A DNA stretch of 64,000 nt from Promethearchaeota archaeon (lineage in GTDB: Archaea; Asgardarchaeota; Lokiarchaeia; Sigyniarchaeales; SOKP01), in contig JBHLNS010000003.1 of assembly GCA_048941285.1 (NCBI GenBank), positions 83,736 through 147,735 of the forward strand, written 5' to 3'. The translations under genes were made by a program, and so were the position numbers. Position 1 is the first letter of the stretch; each line of letters begins with the position of its first letter. Under the pieces are notes generated by a model. The model made no database searches. It saw only the letters and a list, made by a program, of their open reading frames with translations, and was not told the origin of the DNA. Positions 10,487 through 64,000 of the stretch are shown here, one piece after another.

Positions 10487-10487
10487 T

Positions 10488-22172: not shown

Positions 22173-25100
22173 ATGTCAGATTTAAGAGATGAATTATTAA
22201 AAGGCGGTATCAATAAAAAAAGGGTTATAGGAGTAGCATTAGTCGCAATCCTTTTGATTGGTATGTTTGCGTTCTCTACAGTTCTACTTAGTTTTCTTTT
22301 TGGAACTCAAAGACCAAACCCTAATAAGGAAAAAGCTGATACTCCATGGGAAGATGCCGATTTAATTGATAATTATCCCTTTGATGAGGATTTTTGGCAA
22401 GATTTGTTAGATCAAGTAGATGATCCCGCTTCTCTTCTTGATATGTTATCAGAAATGTTTGATGGAAATATTGATGATTTAGATTTAGGTAATTTTTCTC
22501 AAGGATTACTTGATCTTCTCTATTCAGGAGCGGGAGAAATTGAAGTTTTTAGAGTGTATAACTATCTCTTATTTGATAATATGGAAGATGTTTTATGGAA
22601 ATATGAAGCCTTTGATGAATACAATGGTGAGGGTTGGACGTCAAATGCAGTTAGTAATCTTTACAATTTCTACACTTACGGTGATTATCTCGCAAATTAT
22701 TTCCCCGATCCTGAAATTTTAAAATTAAAAATGCCTTTATCTCCTAATATTGGGCTTAATTCGATGAATCTACCTACTCTCTTTCCTAGTCCTTTTGTTA
22801 TGGATACAATTTCTGCACCTAATTTAAATCCGACTCCACGTACATTATATAAAGATGAATATAATTGTACCACAATAGATCTTTCATTTTCTTCTGCTGA
22901 TGATGTAAATATGACATTTGAGATATTTGGTTTTTATAATTCCTTACCATCAAATGAAGAATTGAACAATAGTGCAGTTATTGTTACTAATCCTACGCCT
23001 GAGTATTTGAGTTTAAAGAATAAATTTTTACAATTACCTCCTACAATTCCAGTCTATAAGACTAATAATCCCTATTTTACTAATCACTTTAATATCCTTA
23101 ATAATCAAATAAATGTAAATGATCATGCTTTTTGGAAAGCAAATAAAATCAGAAATTATTTGCAAACTCAATTTTCATTTCCAATGAATCCTACCGACTT
23201 TAATCCTGCTCCAGATGGAAGAGACATTGTTGATTGGTTTTGTCAAACTCAACAAGGATTATGGTCTGATTTTGCTTCAGCTTTTTGTGCTTTTGCAAGA
23301 GCTTTTGGAGTTTTGTGTCGATTTGTTGATGGCTTTAATAGTATGATGATTGAAGAAATTTGGGATAATGATGAAGGTCAATGGGGATTCGCGATAAAAT
23401 ATAAAAATCTTTATAATTGGGCAGAGATATATGTCCCAACCGATATTTATGGAAATGGAAAATGGGTACAATTTGATATTTTTGACAGCTTTGGAGGTGG
23501 AGGAAGCCCAATAATTGGAGGGAATTATAACATTACAGTTTCAACCGATCAAGCTGCCTATAACCGACCAGATACAGCTAGTATAACGGCTAGTGTTAAT
23601 TCAAACACAAACCCAATAAATAATTTAACTATAACTTTCAGAGATTATACTACTGGGAGAATACTAGGACAAGATGATACAGATTTGAGTGGAATTGCTA
23701 CAATCCAGACTAATTTTAATGCTACTGACATCGTTGGTCCTCATTTAATTGAGGCAAGATATGATTTTTTTAATGCAGGTTATAATCTTACGACTATATT
23801 GGGAGATATTTCAATTGCTTTAACTAATGTTAACCCTGGACAAATAAATGTCTCTGATTATCTACCAGATGTTACTAATGTTGCAGGGTTTGTATATGAT
23901 CCATTAAATGGAAATGGAGTAAAGGGTCCTGAATTAAATATCCGCTTGTTAAGAAAGGGAACCAATAGTGAAATAATTAATCCATTTTCGCCTTCAGCAA
24001 TAAATACTACATATGATGGTGATTTCAGTGATTTCTTGAATCTTAATCACAATACTGCTGGAAATTATGAAATCCGAGCTGATCTTAACGGAACTTGGTG
24101 GGTTGACACTCCTTTTGGGCCCTATTCATACGCTCTCTTATCTTTCATATTTCAAGTTCCTTATTTCTATATATCAAATTCAAGCAATAGACTTGATTTT
24201 AATATCACAAAATCTTTAGATGTGTGGTTTTATATCGATGGTTCACCATCGAATTATCCGAATATACCTAGAGTTTCTAGATACCATAATTTAAATCTAA
24301 CTGCGGAGGTATTTTCGGTTACTTCGGGACCAATATCAAACAAACGTGTATTTTTTTATGATCATTCAAGAGGAGATATTCTGATTGGCTCTGACATTTC
24401 AGATCTAAATGGGATTGCCTCAATTATTTATTCTGTTGGAGATAATTGTGCTGCTGGACCTAATTTATTATATGCAAACATTGGTTTACAAAGTAATTAT
24501 TCTTATTATATCTTAGATGAACAGCCTACAATAAATATACTTTCTGGCCCAACACCTCGTATTATAAACCGTACGGGTGGTGGTGCGACGGAATTTAATA
24601 TTATTGGAGAAATTGTTGATAGCACAAATAACTCTTTACCTATAAAATATTCTGAAATTAGCTTAATTTTATTGAAGAGTGGATTGGATTATTCATCATA
24701 TTTAAACCCAAGTGATAGTTATCCTTATCAAACTGATGAAACAGGTACTTTTGATTTGACATTCGGAGTAGCTGCCAATATACCCCCTGGTAATTATACA
24801 CTAAGATTAGATTTTAATGGTACTATTAATCTTTCATCCTATCCTTATTCGTATCTTTTCAATATACCTTACTTAAATACTTCTACTTACTTTGTTAATG
24901 AATTACAAATCGATTCACCAACCAGTTTACAATTTGATTTTTGGATAAATGGAATTGCATCTGATGATGCGATCAATCCAGTTATTAATCGTAATGATGA
25001 TCTTAATCTCACAGTATTGATTCAATATAGTGGTATGCCAATAGACGATGGAGAATGGGTTTACTTCTATGATTTCACTCAAGATAATCTGTTTATTGGT

Positions 25101-26651
25101 TCAGATCAAACAAGTTCAGGGAATGCTGAAATTATTTATTCTACAGGATTGAATACTACAGCAGGCCCACATCTGATTTATGCCACATGGAATAATAAAT
25201 ATAATTATTCTTATTTTATTTTGGATGCCCCTATAAATGTGAATCTTGATATCTGTCCACAACCTAGGGAAGTCAATCGCAGTGGAGCAGATGGGAGAAA
25301 TTTCTTAATTCATGGATATCTAAATGATGCTTTTAATGGAAATCCAATAAAAAATGGAGAAATAAATGTCTTTATGTATGATGGACCTACTGACGTATCA
25401 TTTTATTTAAATCTAGTTTCAGGCTCTTTACAATTAGGGTCATCAGGAGAAATAGATTTAACTTTTTCCGTTTCAAGCTCAACTCCCGCTAAAAATTATA
25501 CTTTACGAGTTAATTTTTATGGTATTTTTATATATACAAATCCTTATTATCCTCAATTTTTCAATTTATGGTATATAAATAATTTTACAGATACAGCTCC
25601 TGGTTTAAATGATCTCAGAGTTATCGATCCAAATGATGTAGATATTTACTTCTTTATAGATGGAAATCCAACACAAACGTTTTATTGGGATGGGAATCCT
25701 CCTGAGATATATAATCGAGGAGATCTAATCAATTTCAGTGTATTTATTCTTCAAAGTGGACTTCCAGTTAGTTCTGGTACTGTTTCATTTACAGATATTT
25801 ATACGGGTACCCCATTGGGAACTCAATCTGTAATTAATGGAAATGCTTCTATTATAGTTGATACTTCTAGTTGGCATGCGGGACTTCATCAAATAAGAGC
25901 TCAATGGTCTGGATCTGATACAACAAATATGACATATGTGGTGATAAATGAACATATTAACATTTTTAGCAATACAGATCAAAGTTCAATTTTAAGAGAT
26001 ATTGATAATTTTATTGTTTCAGGTACAGTCAGGGAACATGGAGAATTTTTAAGAGGCCTAAATCTAAATATTGTTTTATTAGATAACTCTTATTCTGACG
26101 TTTCAGGTCTATATTTAATTGGTGCTCAGACATTAACTATTAATAATGATGGAACTTATCAATTTTTTAACTCAATCGCCTTATCTTGCCCACAAGGAGA
26201 TTATTTTATTAACATTAGTTTTACAGGTGGTTTAAACGCTCCAGGAATATCTATGAGTGATTATATGGTTCATAATAGTAGCTTACTAATCTCAATTGAT
26301 ATTACCGCAAGTACTTATATTCTTGGAAATTATGAGACTAACGTCGTTAAAGATGATTGGTATTACGGTGACGATTGTTATGTGTATGGAAATCTATATT
26401 GGGATAATGGAACTGCAATACCGTTTATGGAAATTAATGTGACTATTAGAGATGGAACGGGATCAATCTTAGCTACTCAAGTAGGATTTACTGATATCAA
26501 TGGATTTTTTAATCTAACTTTTATTGTCGGAGATTGGTTAGATAACACCGAAGTTTGGGTCAACTTTTATCCCGATGATCCAGACAATTTTGGTGTTCCT
26601 GAGGGATTATTTATTATTTTAACAGAGCAAGAAGTGTTTAGGCAAGTTTAA
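22173..26651 (+). CDS. Giant N-terminally anchored surface protein with a transglutaminase-core-like domain (catalytic residues substituted) and four tandem Ig-like repeat units.
   Basis: One N-terminal TM span is present. QQGLWSDFASAFCAFARAFGVLCRFVDGF..YNWAEIYVP..KWVQFD aligns to the G-x-C-x-x-FA..R..G-x-P-x-R / H-A-W / D pattern. Repeated ~230-aa units follow, with many N-x-S/T sequons. Confidence 0.7.
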   Translation: MSDLRDELLKGGINKKRVIGVALVAILLIGMFAFSTVLLSFLFGTQRPNPNKEKADTPWEDADLIDNYPFDEDFWQDLLDQVDDPASLLDMLSEMFDGNIDDLDLGNFSQGLLDLLYSGAGEIEVFRVYNYLLFDNMEDVLWKYEAFDEYNGEGWTSNAVSNLYNFYTYGDYLANYFPDPEILKLKMPLSPNIGLNSMNLPTLFPSPFVMDTISAPNLNPTPRTLYKDEYNCTTIDLSFSSADDVNMTFEIFGFYNSLPSNEELNNSAVIVTNPTPEYLSLKNKFLQLPPTIPVYKTNNPYFTNHFNILNNQINVNDHAFWKANKIRNYLQTQFSFPMNPTDFNPAPDGRDIVDWFCQTQQGLWSDFASAFCAFARAFGVLCRFVDGFNSMMIEEIWDNDEGQWGFAIKYKNLYNWAEIYVPTDIYGNGKWVQFDIFDSFGGGGSPIIGGNYNITVSTDQAAYNRPDTASITASVNSNTNPINNLTITFRDYTTGRILGQDDTDLSGIATIQTNFNATDIVGPHLIEARYDFFNAGYNLTTILGDISIALTNVNPGQINVSDYLPDVTNVAGFVYDPLNGNGVKGPELNIRLLRKGTNSEIINPFSPSAINTTYDGDFSDFLNLNHNTAGNYEIRADLNGTWWVDTPFGPYSYALLSFIFQVPYFYISNSSNRLDFNITKSLDVWFYIDGSPSNYPNIPRVSRYHNLNLTAEVFSVTSGPISNKRVFFYDHSRGDILIGSDISDLNGIASIIYSVGDNCAAGPNLLYANIGLQSNYSYYILDEQPTINILSGPTPRIINRTGGGATEFNIIGEIVDSTNNSLPIKYSEISLILLKSGLDYSSYLNPSDSYPYQTDETGTFDLTFGVAANIPPGNYTLRLDFNGTINLSSYPYSYLFNIPYLNTSTYFVNELQIDSPTSLQFDFWINGIASDDAINPVINRNDDLNLTVLIQYSGMPIDDGEWVYFYDFTQDNLFIGSDQTSSGNAEIIYSTGLNTTAGPHLIYATWNNKYNYSYFILDAPINVNLDICPQPREVNRSGADGRNFLIHGYLNDAFNGNPIKNGEINVFMYDGPTDVSFYLNLVSGSLQLGSSGEIDLTFSVSSSTPAKNYTLRVNFYGIFIYTNPYYPQFFNLWYINNFTDTAPGLNDLRVIDPNDVDIYFFIDGNPTQTFYWDGNPPEIYNRGDLINFSVFILQSGLPVSSGTVSFTDIYTGTPLGTQSVINGNASIIVDTSSWHAGLHQIRAQWSGSDTTNMTYVVINEHINIFSNTDQSSILRDIDNFIVSGTVREHGEFLRGLNLNIVLLDNSYSDVSGLYLIGAQTLTINNDGTYQFFNSIALSCPQGDYFINISFTGGLNAPGISMSDYMVHNSSLLISIDITASTYILGNYETNVVKDDWYYGDDCYVYGNLYWDNGTAIPFMEINVTIRDGTGSILATQVGFTDINGFFNLTFIVGDWLDNTEVWVNFYPDDPDNFGVPEGLFIILTEQEVFRQV

Positions 26652-51316: not shown

Positions 51317-52423
51317 ATGAAAAAATTAAATATTTGCCTTGTCTCTTTAACATTTGCACCTGATAGTCAAGATGGAGCAGCTAAATTCTTTACGGGAATT
51401 TATAATTATTTAAAAAATCATGGACATTATGTAAAATTAATAACTGCTAAATGGAATCTTACTTTTTCAGATCCTGACATCTATCAAATTGATATAATAA
51501 GAAAACGATTTCTATGGTTTCCACAATTCACTTTACACGCTAGAAATTACCTTACCGCTCATAAATTTGACATTATTCATGGAAATGGGCCTAAAGGAGT
51601 TTTACCTATAATTTTGTCTAATCAAAAAAGATTTATCTCAACTATTCATGATTTAGGGCCATTTGAGACAAAATTTACTACAATTCCTTTAGAGAAATTA
51701 TTAATTAAATATGTGGTTAATAAATCAACATTTATAACCACATGTGCCGAATCAATTAGAAAACAGATTAAATATTATATGCCTAATATAGATATTAAAA
51801 GGATATTTAACCTTTATTCGGCAATTGAAGAAAAATATAAACCCCTTCCGAAACATGCTCAGGAATTAAAAGATAAACTGAGTATTGAAGGTCCAGTTCT
51901 TTTGTATATAGGACGTATAGCAAAGTATAAAGGAATAAATGATATTATAAAAGCTTATTACATAGCAAAAAATGAAATCCCAAATCTTAATTTAGTAATT
52001 GGTGGTAAACCAGACTTTTCTATGGAGAAAATTTATAAAGATTGGCAACAAAAATATAAAGACATTCATTTTTTAGGCTTTTTATCAGAAGAAGAAATCC
52101 CAATCTATTATACTATGGGGGACATTTTTGTAACATATTCTTTTGCTTCTGAAGGCTTCGGGTTAACTCCTATCGAAGCAATTGCTTGTGGAACTCCTGT
52201 CATCTGCTCTTCAATTGGGGCATATAAAGAAGTATTACAAGATAATGCTATTTATGTCCCTCCAAAAAATCCAAAACAATTAGCGAAGGAATTTATTATG
52301 TTGTTGAAAGATGATCTTAGAAGGAAGGATCTTATAGAAAAAGCTCAAAATTTTATAAAGAAGTATTCATGGAATGCAGTCGGGAAAAAACTTGAAAGTG
52401 TTTATGAGAAATTTTTAAGTTAA
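51317..52423 (+). CDS. GT-B glycosyltransferase (GT4-like).
   Basis: The C-terminal motif is SFASEGFGLTPIEAIACGTPVICS. Length is 368 aa. Confidence 0.75.
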   Translation: MKKLNICLVSLTFAPDSQDGAAKFFTGIYNYLKNHGHYVKLITAKWNLTFSDPDIYQIDIIRKRFLWFPQFTLHARNYLTAHKFDIIHGNGPKGVLPIILSNQKRFISTIHDLGPFETKFTTIPLEKLLIKYVVNKSTFITTCAESIRKQIKYYMPNIDIKRIFNLYSAIEEKYKPLPKHAQELKDKLSIEGPVLLYIGRIAKYKGINDIIKAYYIAKNEIPNLNLVIGGKPDFSMEKIYKDWQQKYKDIHFLGFLSEEEIPIYYTMGDIFVTYSFASEGFGLTPIEAIACGTPVICSSIGAYKEVLQDNAIYVPPKNPKQLAKEFIMLLKDDLRRKDLIEKAQNFIKKYSWNAVGKKLESVYEKFLS

Positions 52424-53554
52424 ATTTAATTTAATTTCTTTTTGATTTAAATTTTCTTTTACGAAATTAAAGCAGATCTTATTAGGATTTTCAAATTGAT
52501 CAATTTTTTTTTTAAATGAACTTATCTTAAATCTTTCTGATGAAGGACCTTGACCAAGGATTTTTATTACCTTTTTCGATAAATCATTTGGATCTCGAAT
52601 GTGTTCTAAAGGAAAACCATTTTCTATTAAAAATTTCTCTTGGGGTGCAGATTCTCCTGGAAAGAATTCTATACTTGGTACATTCAACAAACTCGATTCT
52701 CTCACAATTGTTCCACCACCACTAATTACTAAGGCGCTATAGAAGCAAAGATCTACTAAATTCGGTAAATATTGTGTTATGATAACATTATTTTCTTTTG
52801 AAATAGCTTTTAATTCTTTTGAAAGAAATTGTTTTTGTTGTTGTGAACGGATTAAAAGGAAATACTTATAATTTGGAAATTCTTTGAAGATATATGGTAA
52901 AAACTCTTTGATTTGAGTCTCTTCTGGTCTAACTTTATGAATCAGATATGAAGCGTAAGAGGGTTCAGATCTTACTATTACATACTTTCCCCTTTCTATA
53001 TTAAAACTTTTCAGAATATCAGGATTTGGTTTATATTCTGAAATCCAAGCAATTTCATCAAGGCCATTGTACCTAATAATCTTTTCTGGATCTGCGTGAA
53101 GTTTTATGTATAATTCTAAGGGTATGCATTGAGGCGTGATAATATTTTCAATAAATGGATGTATTAATTTGCAAACAGGCTTATTTCGAGGTTCATCATT
53201 CATTCCAATCGAAGGAATTTTTAAACCATAAGCAATTCTAGTCCCTTCTATAGATAAAAAGGTTACGAAATAATCTGGTAAAAATCTTTTTATTATGGGA
53301 AGAAGTTGTGTCAACCGATCTATATAAGTTTCTAACTTATTTTCTAATTTTTCACCACCATGCCTTCCAATTTTTATATATCTTACGTCAGAATCATCTA
53401 AAATTTGATAAGTTGAATCATAATCTCGGGCAGTAATTAGTAAATCTGCATTTTCATTTTGAAACATTTTCCAGAGTGATTTAAACATTATTGCGGTTTT
53501 GGGTTGTTCAATGTCAATCCAAATTCTTTTACCAGAAAGACTCATCGTAAACAC
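52415..53554 (-). CDS. DUF354-family protein (GT-B/epimerase-like, archaeal glycan biosynthesis context).
   Basis: The N-terminus KRIWIDIEQPKTAIMFKSL..DLLITARDYD matches the DUF354 start pattern. SGGGTIVRESSLLNVPSI is a GT-B-like nucleotide-binding segment. Confidence 0.55.
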   Translation of the reverse strand: MFTMSLSGKRIWIDIEQPKTAIMFKSLWKMFQNENADLLITARDYDSTYQILDDSDVRYIKIGRHGGEKLENKLETYIDRLTQLLPIIKRFLPDYFVTFLSIEGTRIAYGLKIPSIGMNDEPRNKPVCKLIHPFIENIITPQCIPLELYIKLHADPEKIIRYNGLDEIAWISEYKPNPDILKSFNIERGKYVIVRSEPSYASYLIHKVRPEETQIKEFLPYIFKEFPNYKYFLLIRSQQQKQFLSKELKAISKENNVIITQYLPNLVDLCFYSALVISGGGTIVRESSLLNVPSIEFFPGESAPQEKFLIENGFPLEHIRDPNDLSKKVIKILGQGPSSERFKISSFKKKIDQFENPNKICFNFVKENLNQKEIKLNLT

Positions 53555-53669
53555 TAAAATGATAATAAGGTTTTATTTTTTTTTGAAATTAGTATTATTT
53601 TGATACGAAAATTTGACAGTACGCAGTAAGTAATATAAATAAAAATCCTAACTATCAAGGATTAAAAGA

Positions 53670-53963
53670 CTACTTCTCGCAAATACAAGGTTTAGATTTA
53701 CACTTACTGCACATATTAGGGTATTTTCTTAAAATTGCCGATTCAAGATTTACCCCTAATAAATTTGCTAATGAATTTGTCCAAGCAATAATATCCGCTA
53801 ACTCCTCAGAAGCGTTTTTGATGTCAATTTCTTTATTTTTTAAAATTCGAGCAAATTCTCCAACTTCCTCAACCAACCAAATAAAAGTAGCACTTAATCC
53901 TCTATCTAGGTCTTGTTTGAAGTAAAGTTCTTTAATTAAATTCTGAAATTCTGAAATTTTCAT
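53670..53963 (-). CDS. MazG-like nucleotide pyrophosphohydrolase domain protein with a Cys-rich tail.
   Basis: LVEEVGEFARIL and SEELADIIAWTNSLANLLGVNLE are the EExxE/ExxD-type MazG helices. The C-terminus is CSKCKSKPCIC. Confidence 0.65.
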   Translation of the reverse strand: MKISEFQNLIKELYFKQDLDRGLSATFIWLVEEVGEFARILKNKEIDIKNASEELADIIAWTNSLANLLGVNLESAILRKYPNMCSKCKSKPCICEK

Positions 53964-54013
53964 ATATATGTAATAATTATTAAATAATTATAATAAAAAT
54001 GACGTGAGAGATA

Positions 54014-54235
54014 TTATCCCCCTGCAGGAGTGAATAACCAGTCAAAAACATGAGCACGCGCTAAAATTACTATAAGAATCAGTGATATTGATAGAATTAC
54101 CGGAATAATTGGTCCCACTTTTATACCAACTGAACTATCTTGAAAGAATCTCATTAATCCTGCCCCACCTAATGGCATAGGGGCAGATCCACTTCTTCTT
54201 TTTTTACGTCTTGACTGAGTTCCTCTTGTTGACAT
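54014..54235 (-). CDS. secG: Preprotein translocase subunit Sec61beta (archaeal SecG).
   Basis: A basic N-terminus is followed by GGAGLMRFFQDSSVGIKVGP and a single C-terminal TM span. Length is 73 aa. Confidence 0.8.
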   Translation of the reverse strand: MSTRGTQSRRKKRRSGSAPMPLGGAGLMRFFQDSSVGIKVGPIIPVILSISLILIVILARAHVFDWLFTPAGG

Positions 54236-54390
54236 TGTTAAAAATAAATTAAGTATAATTTAAAATTACTTATTATATAAATACCTTAAAACATATAAAA
54301 TTTTATTTCGACATATAAAAAAAATTTTCATAAGTTTTTATTAATTATTTACATTACTTTTAGATAATTTCAAGGAAAAGTTTTAAAATT

Positions 54391-56280
54391 ATGTCAAAAA
54401 GAATAAAACCCCTTCTTTTACTCATAGTTTTTTCAATGATTTTTATGAGTATAATAATTATTCCCCAAATTTCTAATTTGGATTATTTAAATCAGGATGA
54501 TACACGGAATCTACAATTTTCAACTAGTCAAGAAACAACAGAAAACATATTAGTAACTTATGCCAATAGACGAGTAGATATAAATTTATATGGTGTAGTA
54601 AAAATCCGTGACATCTTGACTATTAAAAATCTTAACAATAATCCCATTAGTTCGGTTTTAGTGGGAATTCCACTTGATCACTCCAGCAAAATAATTTATT
54701 TTGAAAGCAAACGTGCAGATGAAAACACATATGCAGAAGAAAACACCTTATTAGTTGACCGATTAAACATGATTATGGATGAATTTGAAATGTTTATAAT
54801 ATATTTAGATTCACCATTATTACCGCATCAATCGAGTACAATTATATTCAGATACAGCTTAAAAGATGCAGCAAATCCATATATCGTATCTGAGGAACAA
54901 TATATTAACTATCAAGGAATTATTTTCCCAATTTTACCCTACAAAATAGAAGGTGAATTATTGGCATTTTATTTTTATCCTGAATTTCGTACATACGAAG
55001 ATGGCAATGATGAGGATATCACCGAGGATTGGGGCACATATAATCCCGGTCTTAATGCTAGAGAATATAGATTTGAGCAGATCAGTGATACTATTGGAGT
55101 TGCCTATATCGAACCTTTATTGGCAAATTTAAACGATAATAAAGATTTAAATATATGGTTTAAACATAGAAGTAGCATTAAATTGGAGGTTCAAGAAAAT
55201 AAACGTGAAATATTCATATCACCATGGGGAATTTTAAGAATCCGAGAAAATATATTAATTAAAAATTTAGGATTCGATTCAACGTCCCAAATTTTTTTAT
55301 ATATACCAGCTATTGCTTATGGTTTATATGTCTCAGATGATCTGGGGGAAATTTTAGGGGTTTCAATCACAGAGTTACCCGAAACAAACGAAAAACGAGT
55401 TGTAATTAACTTATTAAATAATCGAATAAGAATGTTACCTAATTCCTCATTTAGATTTGATATCGAATATCAATTACCTTTTGAAAATTATTTCTCTATA
55501 AATTGGTTCCAAGAGTCTATTGAAATTGAACTACTCACAACTACTTATGATTATTTAGGAAAAAAACAAACAATCACGATTTTAATTGATGGGTGTTTTA
55601 ATATCGATCATATTACTGATGCTCCAGAAGCGTTTAAAAAATCTCAAGGAATGGTATCGTTAACGTTTACCTCTGACTATGCGGTTCCAGGAGTATATAA
55701 AGTAATACAGTTTACTTTTACTATAGATCTGTTCAATCTACTTTTAAGACCTTTTATATTTATATTATTGTTTCTTTCTATTGCCTCAATTTATGTTGTT
55801 ATAGTCAAAACAAGAAAAAAAGAGAAAGATGTCTCTGCTTTGAAAAAAGAATTCATACCTGTTAATGAAATTCGCGAATTTTGTTCTTTATTTGAAGAAA
55901 AAAATGCATTAATCTTAGAAATTAGACAAGCAGAAGATGATACTAAACGAAAGAAAATTGCTAAAAAAATTTATAAAAATATTTTAACTAAAAACGATGC
56001 AAAAATAGAAGAAGTACAGAAAGAGATAATCCCATTCAAAAAGATGTTAATGGAAACAAATGAAGTTTTTGAGAATATCATAAAAAAGTTAGATGTGTTA
56101 GAAGCTGAAAGAATAAGTATTAAAGATAGTTTATCCCTTTTAGAATCAAGATATAAAAGAGGACGATTACCATCAAGAAATGCATATTTAAAATTATCAG
56201 ATGATTTCACAAAAAGACAAAGGAAGATTGATAGAACAATAGATAAATTAATTCAACAATTTAGAAGTTATTTATTATAA
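54391..56280 (+). CDS. Ribophorin I (OST1)-like oligosaccharyltransferase subunit homolog.
   Basis: Signal anchor is present. ANRRVDINLYGVVKIRDILTIKNL parallels the ribophorin I N-terminal block, and REIFISPWGILRIRENILIKNLG parallels the R-x-I-E-V-S-H-W-G-N-I..E block. YVSDDLGEILG follows, then a single TM span near residue 450 and a cytosolic coiled-coil tail, as in eukaryotic RPN1/OST1. Confidence 0.6.
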   Translation: MSKRIKPLLLLIVFSMIFMSIIIIPQISNLDYLNQDDTRNLQFSTSQETTENILVTYANRRVDINLYGVVKIRDILTIKNLNNNPISSVLVGIPLDHSSKIIYFESKRADENTYAEENTLLVDRLNMIMDEFEMFIIYLDSPLLPHQSSTIIFRYSLKDAANPYIVSEEQYINYQGIIFPILPYKIEGELLAFYFYPEFRTYEDGNDEDITEDWGTYNPGLNAREYRFEQISDTIGVAYIEPLLANLNDNKDLNIWFKHRSSIKLEVQENKREIFISPWGILRIRENILIKNLGFDSTSQIFLYIPAIAYGLYVSDDLGEILGVSITELPETNEKRVVINLLNNRIRMLPNSSFRFDIEYQLPFENYFSINWFQESIEIELLTTTYDYLGKKQTITILIDGCFNIDHITDAPEAFKKSQGMVSLTFTSDYAVPGVYKVIQFTFTIDLFNLLLRPFIFILLFLSIASIYVVIVKTRKKEKDVSALKKEFIPVNEIREFCSLFEEKNALILEIRQAEDDTKRKKIAKKIYKNILTKNDAKIEEVQKEIIPFKKMLMETNEVFENIIKKLDVLEAERISIKDSLSLLESRYKRGRLPSRNAYLKLSDDFTKRQRKIDRTIDKLIQQFRSYLL

Positions 56281-56292
56281 AATTTCTTTTAT

Positions 56293-56928
56293 GTGGAAGA
56301 GTTTATGAAAACTTGGCTATTTGATATCTTAGCATGCCCTTTGGATAAATATTTTCCCTTAAAACTATATATTTTTTCTTTTGAAAATGAACCAGAAGAA
56401 TTTCAATCAATTATTAACACTTATTTAAATCGAGATATTGAATTTATTAAAAATGAGGGTATTATAGGGATTTTTCATGAGGATAGCGAATTACTAGTCA
56501 AGGATAATATCAATATTGAAAAAATGAAACTCAAAAATTATCTTAACTTAACGTCCTCAAGCATTATTGAATTTGAAAATATTTTTGATAAATCCCCTAA
56601 CGATTTAAGCAAAAAATGCATAGAAATTATGAATTCTGATGTTAAATCAAGAATTCTCGAATTTTCGAGAAATCCTAATTTCAATCAGATTGAAAGTATC
56701 TTACCTGAATTATATTTTATTAATAAGATTAAACTTGATTTTGAAATAAAAACGGGTATATTATTTTGTAGTAAATGTAAACGTTGGTATCCAATTATTG
56801 ACACAATCCCTCAAATGCTACCCGATAAATATCGCGATCAAAAAAAAGATATTGACTTTCTGGAAAACCATAAAAATTTATTAGATGAAAAATTCTTTGA
56901 TCAAGATCTTAAACCATTTAAGATTTAA
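56293..56928 (+). CDS. Trm112-family-like protein with a large (~130 aa) internal insertion.
   Basis: The N-terminal strand LFDILACPLDK and C-terminal LFCSKCKRWYPIIDTIPQMLPD match the Trm112/UPF0434 halves. The ORF opens with GTG at 56293, with an ATG at 56305. Confidence 0.5.
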   Translation: MEEFMKTWLFDILACPLDKYFPLKLYIFSFENEPEEFQSIINTYLNRDIEFIKNEGIIGIFHEDSELLVKDNINIEKMKLKNYLNLTSSSIIEFENIFDKSPNDLSKKCIEIMNSDVKSRILEFSRNPNFNQIESILPELYFINKIKLDFEIKTGILFCSKCKRWYPIIDTIPQMLPDKYRDQKKDIDFLENHKNLLDEKFFDQDLKPFKI

Positions 56929-56976
56929 AGTCTAACCAATGAAGATTTAATAATTTTATCATAAATTTTATACATT

Positions 56977-57109
56977 AGCCCGGTGGTGTAGATTAATACA
57001 TCTTTTTTGTATTAAGCAAAGTGGCCAAGCATTTGGGGCTTTGAACCCCGCGACTGTGCATCCCCAGATGAGGTGTATAGCGAACACGGTTCGAATCCGT
57101 GCCGGGCTA
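56977..57109 (+). tRNA. tRNA-Gln (anticodon UUG at 57041-57043) interrupted by two ~30-nt putative introns at non-canonical positions.
   Basis: Exons 56977-56991, 57022-57054 and 57085-57109 concatenate to a 73-nt cloverleaf. It has the acceptor AGCCCGG/CCGGGCT, D stem GTGT/GCAT, anticodon stem TGGGG/CCCCG with loop CTTTGAA, T arm CACGG-TTCGAAT-CCGTG and discriminator A. Confidence 0.7.
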
Positions 57110-57225
57110 TTCATTTCTAATCCTTTAATATTAAAAAATAAAAGATTTAATACAAAAAATATTTTAAGCTTTCCACTGTTTTATTTATCAAAGTTTTAAA
57201 TTAAAATTGAGATAATTGGTAATAA

Positions 57226-58590
57226 ATGAACCCTCTAAATGAAATGAATTGGACTATTATAGAGATCTTGTTTTTAATAATTATATTTGTAGTTGGATTC
57301 CTAGTAACCTATTTAATCCTCCCAATTTTAATAAAGTTCATGAAACGAAAAGGATATGTTGGTATTGATATACATAAAAACTCTAAACCCAAAATTGCTG
57401 AATCTGGAGGAATTAGTATGATAATTGGTTTTATTGTTAGCTTTATTTTTTTAATTATTTTTTTTCCTGCATTTTTGAATCAAAGTATAATTTTTCTACT
57501 CACAGTTTTACTAGCTGGAGTGATCGGGTTTATTGATGATAGGATAAAATTGAGATCACGTTATAAAATAATTTTATCAATATTTTCTGGAAGTATTATC
57601 TTTATTGGAATGTATTTTGGTTTTATTAGTATTGATTCACCAACTATTCCATTTATTGACAGAACTAGATTAACAATAATTTATCCATTATTAGTTCCTG
57701 TGATTGTAGCCGTTTTTGCTAATACTGTAAATATGTTGGAAGGTTATAATGGTGAAGGTTCAGGAACTTGTTTGATCGCTGTTTGTTTCTTGTTTTTTTG
57801 TAGTTTGTTGTGGAATTCTGCTGAAGGAGTGATATTTACTGTACCTGTTATTGCTGTGATATTTCCTTTTTTCTTATTTAATAAATACCCCGCTAAAATT
57901 TTCCCAGGGGATGTGGGTACATTAGCTATGGGAGCAATGATTGCGTGTATAACATTATTTGGCTCACTAGAAGTTGCTACGTTTTGTGCTCTTCTTCTTC
58001 ATATATTTAACAGTTTTTATTATATCTATTCTGTGCGGGGCTTTTTTGAGAGTAGTGATATTAGAGAGAGTAAAGACGATATAATTTTACTTGAAGATGA
58101 CAGAATTAAAGCTTCGGATCAAAAAAGTGCAGTGTTAACTTTGCCTAGATTAATTTTAGCAAGAGGGCCTCTAACAGAACCGGAATTAGTAAAGAACTTT
58201 TATGCAATTTCATTAATATGTGGCTTCTTTTCCGTTCTTTCTATCCTGATAATGCAATATACTTTAGGGCACTTCGAAATCTACATCTTTATTATTGCTT
58301 TTTTTGTAATGTTAACTCCAACTGTTTTTATATTATACAAGTTTCCTAGAATAAGAGGAATAATAGTTTTAATGATAATATTACTAATTTCTATTTTATT
58401 ACTCCTTGTTTTTATCAAAGTAGTAATAATGGTACTTCCTATTGAAGATCTTATCATTGGAATAATCCGTATTCCAATCAATATATTAATATCCTTTCTA
58501 TTGATAATCCCTATACTTCTACTTTGGTATATATTAACTATAAAATATTTTTGGTCTGAAATAGATAAAATGAAAAAATTAAACTCTTAA
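57226..58590 (+). CDS. UDP-GlcNAc:dolichyl/polyprenyl-phosphate GlcNAc-1-phosphate transferase (AglH/ALG7/MraY-WecA superfamily).
   Basis: Motifs are GFIDDRIKL (DD motif), ANTVNMLEGYNGEGSG and FPGDVGTLAMGAMIA. It is a polytopic membrane protein with extra C-terminal TM spans. Confidence 0.75.
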   Translation: MNPLNEMNWTIIEILFLIIIFVVGFLVTYLILPILIKFMKRKGYVGIDIHKNSKPKIAESGGISMIIGFIVSFIFLIIFFPAFLNQSIIFLLTVLLAGVIGFIDDRIKLRSRYKIILSIFSGSIIFIGMYFGFISIDSPTIPFIDRTRLTIIYPLLVPVIVAVFANTVNMLEGYNGEGSGTCLIAVCFLFFCSLLWNSAEGVIFTVPVIAVIFPFFLFNKYPAKIFPGDVGTLAMGAMIACITLFGSLEVATFCALLLHIFNSFYYIYSVRGFFESSDIRESKDDIILLEDDRIKASDQKSAVLTLPRLILARGPLTEPELVKNFYAISLICGFFSVLSILIMQYTLGHFEIYIFIIAFFVMLTPTVFILYKFPRIRGIIVLMIILLISILLLLVFIKVVIMVLPIEDLIIGIIRIPINILISFLLIIPILLLWYILTIKYFWSEIDKMKKLNS

Positions 58591-58654: not shown

Positions 58655-61189
58655 TTGAAAAAAAGAATAAGATTTTTTTTAGCAATATCTTACCCATTCT
58701 ATTCAATAATCATTTTTTTACTTGCTAATTTATTTATTTTCAAATTCAATTTTTCAGCACTTCTAATTGATTGGACATTTATAATAACTTTTGTTTTATT
58801 TTTATTAACCGTTGAAGAATTTTATCAATGGGCTAAAAATGGTAAAAGAAGTGAAATGAGTGACATAGTGGCTATTTTTTTCTTCTTTTTTTTAATTTTT
58901 TTCTTTTCAAAAGATTTTCTAACTTCAATAATGGGGGCATTTTCAATTTATTTGTGGATAGGGATTTATGAATTAAAGGACTACCCTGTAATAAATAAAA
59001 TTTTAATTATTTCACTAGTAACATATAATATTATTTTTATTGCAGGATTATTTTCTTATTATTTAAATGATCCAATATACATTAATACCACTTTTGCATT
59101 TTCTTTTTGGATAATTCTTATTTTGGGATTTCTGTTATTTGGAAGGAAATATATTGTTGTTTGGAGATTCTTGAGTCCCGAATATTTAACTTTATTTCTT
59201 TATATTATAGCATGGTTAGCTGTTGTTTTTATAAATCAATATACTCCACTGAAGTTTATAATTAGTCAACCTATTAATTTGGCTGAATTAAATATTCTAG
59301 ATTTCTTTTTAAATGTTTACTTTCTCTTAATCATCGTCAATTGGGGGATTTATTTCATATCTGGTTTTATTTTAGATAAACTTCTCGGAATTCATAGATT
59401 AATGGATGATAGAGTATTAGATATCGTAAATAAAATAAAAAAAGATATTGGAATTAAAGGTAAGGTTAAAGTGGGATTTGGTAAATATCCTATTTTAAAT
59501 GCAATGGCATATGGCTCTGTAATTGATAAAAGAATTGCGATTATAGCAGAGGACATCAATGACATTCCTAAAGATGAATTAAAAGGCATCTTGGCCCATG
59601 AGTTAGCACATACAAAAGGTAAACACACACTCATTTTAACCTTGATTACAACGATTGATTTAATCATTAGAATGCTTTTTGGTATTCCCGCGACTTACTA
59701 TGATTATACGTTTGGAAATCCTCGTATCCCATTAATCCTTTTTATCCTACTGAATATGGGTATATATTTCTTTTTGTTTATATTTGTGAGAATTCTTGAA
59801 GGAAAAGCCGATTTAAAAACCAAGGAAATAGGATATCAAACTGAACTAGTAAAGGCATTATACAATTTAGAAAGTTTTTATGCGACAGGGAGAGAAATTG
59901 GTTTAAATACTATGCTATTATCTCGAGAAAAAATAACAAAAGACAATCAACTTTTAAATTACTTTAATACAGCTAAATATTTGAATCATTCAATGATTAA
60001 ACCTTCACGAGGTTCGCTTATAGCGAATTTTATCAATTCTCATCCCCCAAGTTATTATAGAATTGCTGCCATATTAGATGATAAGTTAAAACCTTATAAA
60101 GAAGCTATTCTCCCTTTTATATGTTTAAGAAAGTCGAAACAAAAAAAATATGCTTTAAAATTTGAGAAAGCTAGAAAAGATTTCAAAATTATAGCTACAG
60201 AAAAATTCAAGGAATATTTTAAAATTAATGATATCCCTCTTTTAATGGAAAAAATTAGAAGAAAAGAAAATTACCGCTATAAGTTTCAAAAAGATTATAT
60301 CTTTAAAAATTTAATTAACGATGAAATTTATCTCGGTAAACTAATTGATATCGATTTTATTAACGATATTACTGATCCTGAAAATTTAATTATTTCAAAT
60401 TTAAAAACTAATCAAAAAATTTTCTTAAATCCCTCGGAATATTCGTATTCTCTGTTTAATATAAATGATCAATACTTATTTCAGAAAAATGAACCATTAA
60501 CCTTAATTAATATTGAATTAAGTAATGAAAATAAAGATGGCTTCTATGTTTTTTCAGATAGAAATAAAAAACAAATTCAAAAATCTATTCACAAAATAAA
60601 ATTACCAACTCCAATTTCATTTATTAAAAGCCTTAAAGGTTATGAAATTTTTTTAAAAACTAAAGGAGTTATAAAAATTTTTAATTGTATAAATGTCATT
60701 CCAACAACTAATTTAAATAATTTTCAAATAGAATTATCAGATATCAAAATTCAAGAAAATACATTGAAATTATTAGTAGATGAATTAATTATTAGACCTA
60801 AACATATTTACTTTTCAATAAGCAAAAGTCAAAGTTTTAGAGAATCTGAAATCAATCTTATGAAATGGTTGGCACATAAAACGCTTCTAGTACATTTATA
60901 TCTGAAAAAGCCCGTAAATAATTTAGAAATTGGATATTTCTATAAAATTATAGACGATTTACCGAAAGTAGAGAATGATTTATCTAAAGATAAAAATAAC
61001 GATAAACTTATAATATTATTTAAAAATATATTCGGAAAGGAAGTCGAAATTCATTATAAAGAAATTGAAATGATAAATTTTGAGTATAACACCGCTCTGA
61101 TTCAACTAAAATCGGAAACAAGCCTATCGAGTCGTTTAGGATTTAAAATTTTGAAGAAATTCAAACCAGAAAGCATCATCATCTCTTAA
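58655..61189 (+). CDS. M48-family (HtpX-like) zinc metalloprotease embedded in a long membrane protein with a ~380-aa C-terminal extension.
   Basis: HELAHTKGKH is the HExxH site, and a downstream E lies in RILEGKAD. About 7 TM spans precede the site and 2 follow it. The start codon is TTG. Confidence 0.6.
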   Translation: MKKRIRFFLAISYPFYSIIIFLLANLFIFKFNFSALLIDWTFIITFVLFLLTVEEFYQWAKNGKRSEMSDIVAIFFFFFLIFFFSKDFLTSIMGAFSIYLWIGIYELKDYPVINKILIISLVTYNIIFIAGLFSYYLNDPIYINTTFAFSFWIILILGFLLFGRKYIVVWRFLSPEYLTLFLYIIAWLAVVFINQYTPLKFIISQPINLAELNILDFFLNVYFLLIIVNWGIYFISGFILDKLLGIHRLMDDRVLDIVNKIKKDIGIKGKVKVGFGKYPILNAMAYGSVIDKRIAIIAEDINDIPKDELKGILAHELAHTKGKHTLILTLITTIDLIIRMLFGIPATYYDYTFGNPRIPLILFILLNMGIYFFLFIFVRILEGKADLKTKEIGYQTELVKALYNLESFYATGREIGLNTMLLSREKITKDNQLLNYFNTAKYLNHSMIKPSRGSLIANFINSHPPSYYRIAAILDDKLKPYKEAILPFICLRKSKQKKYALKFEKARKDFKIIATEKFKEYFKINDIPLLMEKIRRKENYRYKFQKDYIFKNLINDEIYLGKLIDIDFINDITDPENLIISNLKTNQKIFLNPSEYSYSLFNINDQYLFQKNEPLTLINIELSNENKDGFYVFSDRNKKQIQKSIHKIKLPTPISFIKSLKGYEIFLKTKGVIKIFNCINVIPTTNLNNFQIELSDIKIQENTLKLLVDELIIRPKHIYFSISKSQSFRESEINLMKWLAHKTLLVHLYLKKPVNNLEIGYFYKIIDDLPKVENDLSKDKNNDKLIILFKNIFGKEVEIHYKEIEMINFEYNTALIQLKSETSLSSRLGFKILKKFKPESIIIS

Positions 61190-61204: not shown

Positions 61205-62173
61205 ATGAGTCTTTCAAAAAAGTTAATAATGCTAAGTAAAATTAAAAATATTTTTCATCTATTACGTGTCCGTCAATACTATAAGAACGTATTAGTATTT
61301 GCTGGAATTTTTTTTAGTCAAAGACTTTTTGACACAACTCTATATTTTAATTTATTGATTGGATTTATAATTCTCTGTTGCACATCTTCAATTAATTATA
61401 TTGTAAATGATATTATTGATATTAATAAGGATAGAAAGCATCCTGAAAAAATGAGAAAAAAACCTCTTGCTTCTGGAGAACTTTCATTATTTTTTGCAGT
61501 ATTTCTTTTGATCTTATTCGGAGGCATAACTATTTTGCTTTTAGTTTTTATTCTCCCAAATTTGGGGTTTGTTTTTATGATTGTTATGTTAATACTTACG
61601 GGGCAACTATATAATTACCTTCTAAAAAAATATGCTTTTATTGATATTATTATTTTATCTACAGGATATTTGTGGAGAGCATTAGCTGGATGCGCAATAA
61701 TTGAAGAATTTGTCTCTGCTTGGTTGTTTTTAGCCATCTTTGAAGTTGCTCTTTTTCTAAGTATAGCTAAAAGAAGAGGAGATTTAATACTGCTAGGAAA
61801 AGATAAAGCAGTTGAACATAAAACTGTTTATGATCAATATTCTTTGACCTTATTAAATCAATTTCATTTAATAATTGCAGGTTCATTATTCATGACCTAT
61901 TCCCTCTATTTAATTATAAAATTCAATTTATTCGAATCAAGTATAATACCTGGAAGTGCAACTCTTTATGAATATTTTTCAATTTTAACTATCCCAATCT
62001 CACTTTACATAATTATGAGATATATGTATTTAACCTCATCTAAGCCAGAAATAGCACGCAACACAGAAAAAGCTTTCCTAGATAAAGGAATTATAATTGC
62101 AGGGTTTATTTTACTAATTGTTTTATTTATAGCCTTTTATTTTGAATATATTCTCCTAATATTGGGTTTATAA
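61205..62173 (+). CDS. UbiA-superfamily prenyltransferase (decaprenyl-phosphate phosphoribosyltransferase-like subgroup).
   Basis: The motif is NYIVNDIIDINKDRKHPEKMRKKPLASGE (NDxxDxxxD plus RPLASG-like). The protein is polytopic. Confidence 0.7.
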   Translation: MSLSKKLIMLSKIKNIFHLLRVRQYYKNVLVFAGIFFSQRLFDTTLYFNLLIGFIILCCTSSINYIVNDIIDINKDRKHPEKMRKKPLASGELSLFFAVFLLILFGGITILLLVFILPNLGFVFMIVMLILTGQLYNYLLKKYAFIDIIILSTGYLWRALAGCAIIEEFVSAWLFLAIFEVALFLSIAKRRGDLILLGKDKAVEHKTVYDQYSLTLLNQFHLIIAGSLFMTYSLYLIIKFNLFESSIIPGSATLYEYFSILTIPISLYIIMRYMYLTSSKPEIARNTEKAFLDKGIIIAGFILLIVLFIAFYFEYILLILGL

Positions 62174-62493
62174 GTAATTATTCCCATTCGTTTCCCCCAT
62201 TTTTTTAATTATAGGGACATCTTATTATTGGAATTTCATTTATAGAGAATCTATAATACCGAAAATTTCTTAGTTGAGATGGGTAATAAATTCAAATTAT
62301 CAAGTAACTTCTTATAGATTGAAAGTATATGAAATCAAAATCAATAAAACAAACTCCATTAAATCTATTGTAAAATCTAAAAACAATCAAAAAAAAAAGA
62401 TAAAACTTATAAGTATACGAATTTAAAAACATATTTAACAACAAATCTAAAAAAAAATTTAAAAAAAATTTTAGAATTTTTAGTGATCTTAAT

Positions 62494-64000
62494 ATGGAAA
62501 TGGAAAAGAAAAATTTAGCGATAATCATCTTAGCAGTAGTTTTAGCTGCTTCAGGTGTTGGAAACGTTATCATGGCTGCAATGCTTGGTCTTATTAGAGC
62601 ACCTCCTACTTTTGAGGTACTTAAACTAGCTAGAACAGCCAATCCAGTTACTATGGATCCATGCGATACTTGGGATAGCGTTTCAAACGATATACTTGAT
62701 CAGGTAGTTGAGACTCTAATTGCTTACAATTTATCAGATCCTGAATTCCCACTTGTCGGAAGATTAGCTGAATCCTGGAATTGGCCTGATGAGACAACAG
62801 TCGTATTCCACTTGCGACCAAACGTATTATTCCATGATGGTACCGCTCTTACTGGAGAATGTGTTCTCCATACAATAGAGCGAATAAACTTCTTTGGTAA
62901 TGCAACTGGTACCTTAACTGCTCCTCATCATATGGCTTTCCCACACTCTCTTTATAAATTTGCTGGAGCAGGCCCTTATGTAGCACCAATTTTCAATCAT
63001 ACGCTCAGTTCTGTCAATCCATCTGACCCATTAGAAGTAACCGTTAAATTAAATTCACCTTTTGCTCCTGCTGAAGGATTATTAGCCTATACAGCAAGTT
63101 CAATAGTCCATCCTGATTCTACCCCTGTTAATGATATGTTAGAACTCGGTACAGATCTAGCCATTGGAACTGGTCCATTCAAATTAGTTAGTTATGTACC
63201 TAACTCCGAGGTTCGATTTGAACGTTGGGATAGATATTGGGATGATCCCGCTTATTGGGATGAGTTAGTCTATGTTTATTATAGAGATGCTGTCACTGCT
63301 AATAATGCTATGTTAGCTGGAGATATTGACTACTTAGGTCAAGGTATTGCTGCATTAAAAGAATATTTCGAAGCAAGTCCTTATATCACAGTAACTGGAG
63401 ATGGAGTTCATGACTATATCAACGGTTCTATCTATTGGTATATTGCATTTAACTCCCCTTATATAAATGTTACCTGGAGAAAAGCTATTGCCTCAGCCTT
63501 TAACTATACATATTTGAACAGAGAAATCGATGAGGGAACTACAGTGAAAGCTAATTCATTGGTTCCTCCAGGTTTTCCTGCACATAATTATACAGTTAAA
63601 GGTGGTGTATATAACATCCCCTATGCCAGACAAAAAATGCAGAGTATGGGGTATGGAGTAGGATGGGAAGTAGGTAGCCAAGTTGGGGGTGTATTCACTG
63701 GTGGAGCTGATGAGGCTCTTTGGAAGGCTGCTTCATTTGTTCCAGATGTAGGTAATTTTACAAATGGATTTAATTTCCGTCATAGACAAGGAAGTCATTT
63801 CATGGAACTTCTTATCCAACGATTCGAATATGATATGGATTTGATTGGAGTTGAAATTAACATTCAAATCTTGACTTGGGATGAATTCATAGAAATGGGT
63901 GAAAATCATCCTGATAGACTCCATATCTATTACGTCGGATGGGGTCCTGATTACTTTGAAACTTTTAACATGATTGATCCATTAGTAAACCCAGCATCTT
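62494..64000 (+). CDS. ABC transporter substrate-binding protein, family 5 (oligopeptide/dipeptide/nickel type). It is 3' truncated by the window edge.
   Basis: This gene is not in the ORF track because no stop is reached. There is an N-terminal signal anchor (LAIIILAVVLAASG). Motifs include TMDPCDTWDS, GTGPFKLVSYVPNSEVRFERWDRYW, and GWGPDYFETFNMIDPL at the end. Confidence 0.75.
   Translation, partial: MEMEKKNLAIIILAVVLAASGVGNVIMAAMLGLIRAPPTFEVLKLARTANPVTMDPCDTWDSVSNDILDQVVETLIAYNLSDPEFPLVGRLAESWNWPDETTVVFHLRPNVLFHDGTALTGECVLHTIERINFFGNATGTLTAPHHMAFPHSLYKFAGAGPYVAPIFNHTLSSVNPSDPLEVTVKLNSPFAPAEGLLAYTASSIVHPDSTPVNDMLELGTDLAIGTGPFKLVSYVPNSEVRFERWDRYWDDPAYWDELVYVYYRDAVTANNAMLAGDIDYLGQGIAALKEYFEASPYITVTGDGVHDYINGSIYWYIAFNSPYINVTWRKAIASAFNYTYLNREIDEGTTVKANSLVPPGFPAHNYTVKGGVYNIPYARQKMQSMGYGVGWEVGSQVGGVFTGGADEALWKAASFVPDVGNFTNGFNFRHRQGSHFMELLIQRFEYDMDLIGVEINIQILTWDEFIEMGENHPDRLHIYYVGWGPDYFETFNMIDPLVNPAS

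Follow-up and report, generated by a model that had tools for sequence, protein, structure and literature searches.

How did the translocon of the endoplasmic reticulum (ER) come to carry its attached glycosylation machinery? This is part of the question of eukaryogenesis, and Asgard archaeal Ost1 is already a published piece of it. We analysed a stretch of 64,000 nucleotides (nt) from a Promethearchaeota archaeon (contig JBHLNS010000003.1, positions 83,736 to 147,735; hereafter the window), in which a gene for the translocon subunit Sec61beta lies back to back with a gene for a 629-amino-acid (aa) protein resembling ribophorin I/Ost1, a subunit of the oligosaccharyltransferase (OST). We asked whether this arrangement reflects a link between translocon and glycosylation or only an inherited gene order. 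We found that the 629-aa protein is a clear ortholog of ribophorin I/Ost1 and that the pairing is stable in Lokiarchaeia-type genomes, where it forms the centre of a four-gene core. We consider it likely that this Lokiarchaeia-type Ost1 (hereafter RPN1) acts as an accessory subunit of AglB/STT3 on the translocon side.

The 629-aa protein is a ribophorin I/Ost1 ortholog

Genes were assigned from the open reading frames (ORFs) with their translations and a Pfam scan, with NCBIfam, phmmer against the PDB and Foldseek as extra tests. The protein encoded by RPN1 (54391..56280, plus strand) is identical to an NCBI entry with the locus tag ACFFA4_02160, from a metagenome-assembled genome (MAG) labelled "Promethearchaeota archaeon". 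Its product scored above the threshold of the Pfam family Ribophorin_I (PF04597; 45.9 bits against a gathering score of 25, E 5.7e-12), residues 58-294 aligning to model positions 6-228. By building an AlphaFold2 model on a 79-sequence alignment, we obtained a predicted local distance difference test score (pLDDT) of 86.1, compared with only 40 for a single-sequence model. When this model was searched against the PDB with Foldseek, ranks 1-8 were all human or yeast RPN1/Ost1 chains (E 1.4e-30 to 1e-20), and the first fold of another kind appeared at E 6e-09. The extracellular region of the model is all-beta (residues ~50-445) and has the beta-sandwich of RPN1/Ost1 in solved OST complexes.

A hydropathy scan found two hydrophobic segments (residues 3-30 and 441-476), and the model places helices at 5-22 and 447-487, with the transmembrane (TM) helix at ~447-476. 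From the scan and the model, the predicted topology is type I: a signal sequence or anchor opens the protein, and its only TM helix lies towards the C-terminus. Beyond the membrane, the model folds residues ~490-628 into a cytosolic four-helix bundle. This tail (479-629) matches 8WHN, the crystal structure of the cytoplasmic domain of MK-D1 Ost1 (Carilo et al. 2024; PMC11417166), both in sequence (phmmer E 1.3e-35, 46% identity) and in fold (Foldseek TM-score 0.88, root mean square deviation (rmsd) 2.1 A).

A first, sequence-only reading of this DNA had likened the protein to ribophorin I/OST1. The search with the Ribophorin_I hidden Markov model (HMM) and the structure prediction were both positive, and the likeness is borne out by profile, fold and cytosolic domain; because all three match ribophorin I, the idea that the resemblance might have no match behind it fails. 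The topology proposed at that time also stood for the signal anchor, the luminal domain and the single TM helix, but the supposed coiled-coil tail is a four-helix bundle. The 629-aa gene thus clearly codes for a ribophorin I/Ost1 ortholog of the Lokiarchaeia type; ribophorin I/Ost1 counts among the known Asgard "eukaryotic signature proteins". Since Asgard Ost1 has already been published, the protein therefore joins a family that is described and partly characterised.

We also noticed that RPN1 holds a single N-X-S/T sequon, where 4.7 would be expected from its composition (z ~ -2), and that it evolves much faster than its neighbours (40-55% identity, versus 60-99% for adjacent genes); rapid change is a trait of the extracellular region throughout the family.

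Sec61beta and RPN1 are stably paired in Lokiarchaeia-type genomes

All ORFs named by the sequence-only reading were recovered at their positions, and each assignment is backed by Pfam. The Sec61beta/archaeal Sec-beta gene (54014..54235, minus strand, 73 aa) scored 39.8 bits with Pfam Sec61_beta (PF03911; gathering score 27) and 39.6 bits with NCBIfam Sec61beta, under the equivalog cut-off of 55. Its C-terminal hydrophobic segment (34-69 of 73 aa) is that of a short tail-anchored translocon subunit. Two further genes, which that reading did not name, complete the four-gene core: one for a MazG-like small protein of 97 aa, which follows Sec61beta on the minus strand (53670..53963; Pfam MazG 2.9e-07), and one for a Trm112p-like zinc-ribbon protein of 211 aa, which follows RPN1 (56293..56928, plus strand; Pfam Trm112p 1.9e-08).

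To follow this arrangement we scanned one genome per species, which gave 74 loci, and read gene order by tblastn with the window proteins. The common order is Roadblock - MetAP - GT4 - DUF354 - MazG - Sec61beta | RPN1 - Trm112 - GPT - M48 - UbiA, where GT4 is a family-4 glycosyltransferase and GPT a polyprenyl-phosphate N-acetylhexosamine (HexNAc)-1-phosphate transferase family protein. Junctions were then counted over 76 loci, scoring only informative loci as kept or broken. The junction Sec61beta-RPN1 was kept in 72 and broken in 1, RPN1-Trm112 was kept in 73 and broken in none, and MazG-Sec61beta was kept in 68 and broken in 2. Outside the core, DUF354-MazG was kept in 30 and broken in 35, Trm112-GPT was kept in 46 and broken in 19, GT4-DUF354 was kept in 54 of 59 informative loci and GPT-M48 in 48 of 58; some loci have the order GT4-GPT-DUF354 (L062, L066, L068, L070).

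The divergent pair is thus kept in ~70 species-level Lokiarchaeia-type genomes, and its retention in these relatives disposes of the possibility that it is conserved in no related genome. The whole core, MazG(-) Sec61beta(-) | RPN1(+) Trm112(+), is also intact in a complete 3.3-Mb Lokiarchaeia-type genome (L001, CP070831.1), as well as in L. ossiferum and three deep relatives (L078, L117, L118, L119). In these last genomes RPN1 identity is ~27% and the outer flanks of the core are all different. Because the core survives where every other neighbour differs, its conservation exceeds inherited synteny. Together, these data show that the back-to-back pairing of Sec61beta and RPN1 is real and stable in Lokiarchaeia-type genomes.

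The divergent spacer contains two promoter-like blocks

The 155-nt intergenic region described earlier between Sec61beta and the 629-aa gene is present (54236..54390), and most of 71 loci have a spacer of 147-157 nt. Two AT-rich, promoter-like blocks stand out in the alignment as conserved. The one nearer Sec61beta (~54288-54312) carries the TATA-like TTTTATAT on the minus strand, and the one nearer RPN1 (~54326-54372) reads ATAAGTTTTTATTAAT ... TTAGATAATTT. In the alignment of spacers, 61 columns were at least 80% conserved, versus 2-11 in shuffled controls. The sequence-only reading had proposed co-regulation from a shared promoter region; the spacer looks more like two separate promoters than one shared element, and its conservation is no higher than in a control spacer of the same genomes. 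On the same ground we rejected a special constraint on this spacer, the control being just as conserved. TTAGATAATTT was also considered as a general repeated element and rejected, with 18 matches in the window versus 16.5 expected.

A Trm112-like gene accompanies RPN1

Only 12 nt separate the Trm112-like gene from RPN1, and the two are probably transcribed together. Its Pfam match is split over residues 9-170 by a ~130-aa insertion inside the zinc ribbon; the protein has no TM segment, and its score with the NCBIfam model Trm112_arch (49.9 bits) is under the cut-off of 77. Each of the five sampled lineages, namely window-type Lokiarchaeia, L. ossiferum-type, P0192-type, Thor-like and "Asgardarchaeia", has a gene of this type either adjacent to RPN1 or one gene away from it (for example 10914-11282 in L076, 7632-7952 in L084 and 6646-7338 in L098). 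The proteins measure 205-237 aa in Lokiarchaeia-type genomes, including the ~130-aa insertion, and 104-125 aa in Thor-like and "Asgardarchaeia" genomes. In the limited library of literature that we searched, we found neither a link between ribophorin/Ost1 and Trm112 nor an account of the Ost1 gene neighbourhood.

One could imagine that the Trm112-like protein is an unrecognised cytosolic partner of the ribosome-binding Ost1 bundle, in which case the Lokiarchaeia four-gene unit would be a co-expressed translocon-docking module. We regard this as a long shot. If true, the Trm112-containing unit would be a genomic trace of a ribosome-Sec61-OST coupling otherwise known only from eukaryotes.

RPN1 neighbourhoods in other Asgard lineages

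The sample outside Lokiarchaeia-type genomes comprised 38 metagenome loci and L076/L077; it did not include the neighbourhoods of Heimdallarchaeia, Odinarchaeia and Bathyarchaeota. Sec61beta was searched for in all 40 loci with an HMM built from Lokiarchaeia-type sequences and relaxed to E 50, and Pfam was also applied to the called genes of L076/L077 (precomputed families) and to the neighbours in L084 and L098.

In the ~33 Thor-like loci, which encode a long form of RPN1 (~990 aa), no Sec61beta was found; the divergent neighbour is mostly a Glycos_transf_4 gene on the minus strand, and a Trm112p gene lies ~1 kb downstream on the opposite strand. The four P0192-type loci also lacked a detectable Sec61beta; three of them have a divergent Glycos_transf_4 gene (minus strand), which was not found in L079, and Trm112p is directly downstream. 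In the two "Asgardarchaeia"-labelled loci, with no Sec61beta within 8 kb, the divergent neighbour is a glycine-cleavage gene and Trm112p lies one gene downstream. The remaining locus is on a short contig where the divergent neighbour is uninformative, and neither Sec61beta nor Trm112p was seen. Conservation of the Sec61beta|RPN1 pair across Asgard genomes therefore holds for Lokiarchaeia-type genomes (72 of 73 informative loci), but not for the Thor-like, P0192-type and "Asgardarchaeia" loci.

Of the five sampled lineages, all have a Trm112-like gene close to RPN1, three have GPT there and two have Sec61beta. At this wider scale, RPN1 is associated with the Trm112-like gene and, with less regularity, with a gene of the N-acetylglucosamine (GlcNAc)-1-phosphate transferase family. 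Since GPT is divergent from RPN1 in most Thor-like and in three of four P0192-type loci, RPN1 is tied to N-glycan synthesis independently of Sec61beta. These counts hint that the Sec61beta association is specific to the Lokiarchaeia lineage, while those with Trm112-like genes and GPT may be older.

Some neighbours recur at other distances. Topoisomerase VI B/A genes, which lie ~43 kb from RPN1 in the window (7136-11681), are directly upstream of GPT|RPN1 in Thor-like loci (3-2388 in L084), and genes for the glycine-cleavage P-protein are found beside RPN1 in Thor-like as well as "Asgardarchaeia" loci. Both may be remnants of an older gene order.

Weighing the possible meanings of the neighbourhood

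The picture that we favour, and hold to be likely, is that of a Lokiarchaeia-type Ost1 in a four-gene core, serving AglB/STT3 from the translocon side. RPN1 would assist the AglB/STT3 oligosaccharyltransferase in the cell membrane as an accessory subunit; through its cytosolic bundle, the enzyme would be kept beside ribosome-engaged Sec61 channels, and nascent chains would be N-glycosylated while emerging. More tentatively, the back-to-back promoters might give Sec61beta and RPN1 a similar constitutive expression in Lokiarchaeia. Several observations weigh against this picture. The window ORFs that we scanned yielded no gene for STT3/AglB, OST3/6 or TRAP, so that the window itself provides no OST link. 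Within ~5-8 kb of RPN1, none of the 40 loci outside Lokiarchaeia-type genomes gave a Sec61beta, although a very divergent one could have escaped detection in loci searched with the HMM only. The spacer blocks look like two separate, back-to-back archaeal core promoters with a B recognition element (BRE) and a TATA box, and the Roadblock|MetAP control spacer is equally conserved (80 of 253 columns, versus 64 of 163 for Sec61beta|RPN1). Ribosome binding has been reported with human ribosomes only and for the MK-D1 ortholog only (PMC11417166). Finally, the N-glycans of MK-D1 are without a eukaryote-type chitobiose core and its glycosylation is infrequent (PMC11284389); the lack of a eukaryote-type core calls for caution against a fully eukaryote-like pathway.

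The strongest competitor, which we judge possible but lean against, is that the adjacency of Sec61beta and RPN1 is an inherited order without regulatory or functional meaning, two independent housekeeping promoters merely facing apart. The two separate TATA-like blocks fit this well, as do the Thor-like, P0192-type and "Asgardarchaeia" loci without the pairing and the fact that another divergent pair, Roadblock|MetAP, is conserved together with its spacer to the same degree in the window-type clade. What inherited order explains poorly is the uneven pattern of loss: a single break among 73 informative loci, against 19-35 at neighbouring junctions, and the persistence of the pair with MazG and Trm112 in L. 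ossiferum-type genomes, where RPN1 has fallen to ~27% identity and every outer flank has changed.

Two other explanations give weight to one side of the locus. According to one, the region is chiefly an island for lipid-linked glycan assembly (GT4, DUF354, GPT and the UbiA-like enzyme), with RPN1 as its membrane partner and Sec61beta as a passenger. This is suggested by the contiguous GT4-GPT-DUF354 genes of four loci, by the divergent GPT|RPN1 arrangement in most Thor-like and three of four P0192-type loci, and by the resemblance of the UbiA protein to a polyprenyl-phosphate glycosyl transferase. We nevertheless find it rather unlikely, given the frequent breaks at the DUF354-MazG and Trm112-GPT junctions and the L. 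ossiferum-type genomes, which keep Sec61beta|RPN1-Trm112 but without GPT, GT4 or DUF354 in the surrounding 6-8 kb. Conversely, RPN1 could be mainly a ribosome receptor or translocon accessory factor rather than an OST subunit, the nearby glycosylation genes being a separate module. The ribosome binding of the cytosolic domain of the MK-D1 ortholog (PMC11417166), the conservation of a basic tail motif across Asgard lineages, the proximity of Sec61beta in Lokiarchaeia and the translation-linked Trm112-like gene near RPN1 in all five lineages all go in this direction. However, the extracellular region has the RPN1/Ost1 fold of OST complexes, and GPT pairs divergently with RPN1 in two other lineages and is no more than two genes away from it here, which makes this explanation distinctly improbable in our view.

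With an Ost1 that serves both translocon and OST as the preferred explanation, the window adds evidence from gene order: Ost1 lies beside a translocon subunit in Lokiarchaeia-type genomes, beside the enzyme family that initiates N-glycans in other Asgard genomes, and near a Trm112-like gene in all those sampled. The detail is modest and leaves the current picture unchanged. It does point to specific genes whose co-expression and interaction could be examined in MK-D1 and L. ossiferum, the two Lokiarchaeia in culture.

Lipid-linked glycan genes, an interrupted tRNA and candidate substrates

In the sub-clade of the window, the four-gene core is flanked by genes for lipid-linked glycans, namely GT4, DUF354, GPT and a UbiA-type polyprenyl-phosphate enzyme. 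The GT4-family glycosyltransferase (51317..52423, plus strand, 368 aa; Pfam Glycos_transf_1 5.6e-36, Glyco_transf_4 1.5e-11) has GT4 enzymes such as BshA and PimA as its nearest solved structures, and is a candidate for extending the lipid-linked glycan. It converges with the DUF354 gene (52415..53554, minus strand, 379 aa; Pfam DUF354 7.4e-42), which it overlaps by 9 nt. NCBIfam and PDB sequence searches with the DUF354 protein gave no match. Most Asgard genomes have been reported to be without Alg13/14 homologs (PMC8993221), and one may speculate that DUF354 could conceivably serve the Alg13/14 step.

On the other side of the core, GPT (57226..58590, plus strand, 454 aa; Pfam Glycos_transf_4 105 bits, 5.3e-30) is a member of the polyprenyl-phosphate HexNAc-1-phosphate transferase superfamily. 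By phmmer against the PDB it matched MraY (4.5e-10) and human DPAGT1 (3.2e-09), and its NCBIfam matches to MraY and WecA were all far under the cut-offs. Its earlier naming as an AglH/ALG7-type GlcNAc-1-phosphate transferase is borne out for the superfamily, within which the scores do not separate ALG7/AglH from MraY; by context, GPT is AglH/ALG7-like. The following gene encodes a multi-TM zinc metallopeptidase of the M48 (HtpX/Ste24) type (58655..61189, plus strand, 844 aa; Pfam Peptidase_M48 3.5e-16), with weak NCBIfam matches to HtpX. Elsewhere, M48 enzymes of the HtpX/Ste24 type take part in membrane-protein and translocon quality control. The UbiA-family prenyltransferase (61205..62173, plus strand; Pfam UbiA 3.3e-20) scored 169 bits with the NCBIfam model for decaprenyl-phosphate phosphoribosyltransferase, under the cut-off of 234.

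The tRNA noted earlier between RPN1 and GPT is real, but interrupted: a tRNA-Gln(UUG) gene (56977..57109, plus strand) with the acceptor stem AGCCCGG/CCGGGCT and the T-arm CACGG-TTCGAAT-CCGTG. ARAGORN and Rfam (both thresholds) made no call for this tRNA on the intact sequence of the window. Its two inserts interrupt the D-loop region and the stretch before the T-arm, both of which are non-canonical positions. Upon removal of the ~30-nt insert of the D-loop region, ARAGORN called tRNA-Gln(UUG) in 12,905 of the 13,262 splice trials that gave a hit (22,800 tried).

As a substrate for glycosylation, the sequence-only reading had proposed a 1492-aa transglutaminase-like/Ig-like surface protein (22173..26651, plus strand; Pfam Transglut_core 1e-11, Big_3_5 7e-12), whose gene lies ~28 kb from the cluster, inside a MoxR/DUF58/VWA cluster. 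The protein is indeed enriched in N-X-S/T sequons (35, versus 21.5 from shuffles; z 3.4), but a family-5 extracellular solute-binding protein (SBP) encoded downstream of UbiA is at least as good a candidate. This last gene (62494..64000, plus strand; Pfam SBP_bac_5 3.4e-53) runs off the end of the window and has 8 sequons in 502 aa, versus 3.1 expected (z 2.9); in L001, too, UbiA is followed by a gene of this type. MK-D1 likewise has a family-5 SBP as its dominant N-glycoprotein (DSAG12_03090; PMC11284389), which makes the two the same type of protein, orthology aside.

The window is AT-rich (G+C ~28-30%), and a GC-richer stretch at 62150-64000, in which Rfam found no match, is the start of the SBP gene. 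According to Pfam, the window also encodes a Roadblock/LC7 protein and a Ras-family GTPase. In L001, a ubiquitin-like system (4137-7235), with genes for ubiquitin, ThiF/E1, UQ_con/E2 and a JAB deubiquitinase, lies just upstream of Sec61beta|RPN1.

Distribution of ribophorin I in archaea

By an exhaustive HMMER search we collected 332 clusters (50% identity, E up to 0.001); word-indexed protein searches with distant queries gave 7 and 4 matches. Full-length members split into three groups: Lokiarchaeia-type, Bathyarchaeota and a mixed group in which the members with names carry Thor-, Hel-, Hod- and "Asgardarchaeia" labels. The L. ossiferum RPN1 belongs to the Lokiarchaeia-type group at only 27% identity to the window protein. 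The most conserved part of RPN1 is the cytosolic domain, with a basic motif, R/K-K-I-K-K-R/K-E-Y, that is shared across Asgard lineages.

The ~990-aa Thor-like RPN1 (L083-L116, for example 3597-6599 in L084) owes its length to a sequon-rich extracellular N-terminal extension of ~400 aa, with no detectable similarity to RPN1 domains or to Pfam families except a weak Big_7 match. A duplicated RPN1 domain was rejected as its origin, sequence similarity being absent. Three MAGs hold two RPN1 loci each. The copies of L005/L041 (54% versus 45%) and of L013/L026 (52% versus 52%, on different contigs) differ, and each has flanks of its own (the full set in L005/L041); this pattern speaks for mixed bins more than for paralogs. 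L072 and L074 hold fragments that complement each other, one N-terminal and one C-terminal, and could represent a single gene divided between contigs. In addition, the NCBI class labels of several MAGs (Hod-, Hermod-, Odin-, Thor-) conflict with their Lokiarchaeia-type RPN1 and synteny.

Comparison with known systems

Homologs of Ost1 and Ost3 had been reported in Asgard archaea, and a 2023 paper extended the list with more subunits of OST and TRAP (PMC10307638). An AlphaFold2 model of the MK-D1 Sec61/OST/TRAP assembly superimposes on the human translocon, and the cytoplasmic domain of MK-D1 Ost1 pulls down human ribosomes (PMC11417166). Translocon-coupled glycosylation, which the sequence-only reading had offered as a new prokaryotic hint, is thus not new, an Asgard Sec61/OST/ribosome assembly being already published (PMC11417166, PMC10307638). 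MK-D1 Ost1 (WP_147663064.1; 8WHN) is the closest known system: it has the architecture of the window protein, with a signal sequence, a beta-rich extracellular region, one TM helix and a four-helix bundle, and is of the same Lokiarchaeia type, from another genome. The paper that describes it does not mention gene order (PMC11417166).

More distant homologs share the fold to different extents. Full-length ribophorin-I-like proteins of Bathyarchaeota (~570-590 aa; RJS80355.1, and KYH42048.1 annotated as "Ribophorin 1 superfamily protein") matched at E ~1e-19 (P0228) with ~20-25% identity; they belong to the TACK lineage and form a separate cluster. Yeast Ost1 (6EZN_A, 6C26_1, 7OCI_A) shares the luminal/extracellular fold (E 1e-20 to 1e-23, target-normalised TM-score 0.65-0.67), and the alignment of its solved chains (432-438 residues) covers 468-473 columns, short of the cytosolic bundle of the window protein; to our knowledge, yeast Ost1 does not have this domain. 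The best full-length matches are human RPN1 chains of OST-A on the Sec61-TRAP translocon (8B6L_O and 6S7O_E; 619-635 columns, E 1.4e-30 and 2.2e-28), and these include the C-terminal cytosolic helical bundle that is absent from yeast Ost1. Sequence identity to human RPN1 is ~14%, and the full-length rmsd of ~16 A probably comes from a differing orientation of the domains; with RPN1 of OST-B (6S7T_E), the rmsd is 5.1 A and the target-normalised TM-score 0.72. Whereas human RPN1 resides in the ER, the window protein is predicted to reside in the cell membrane.

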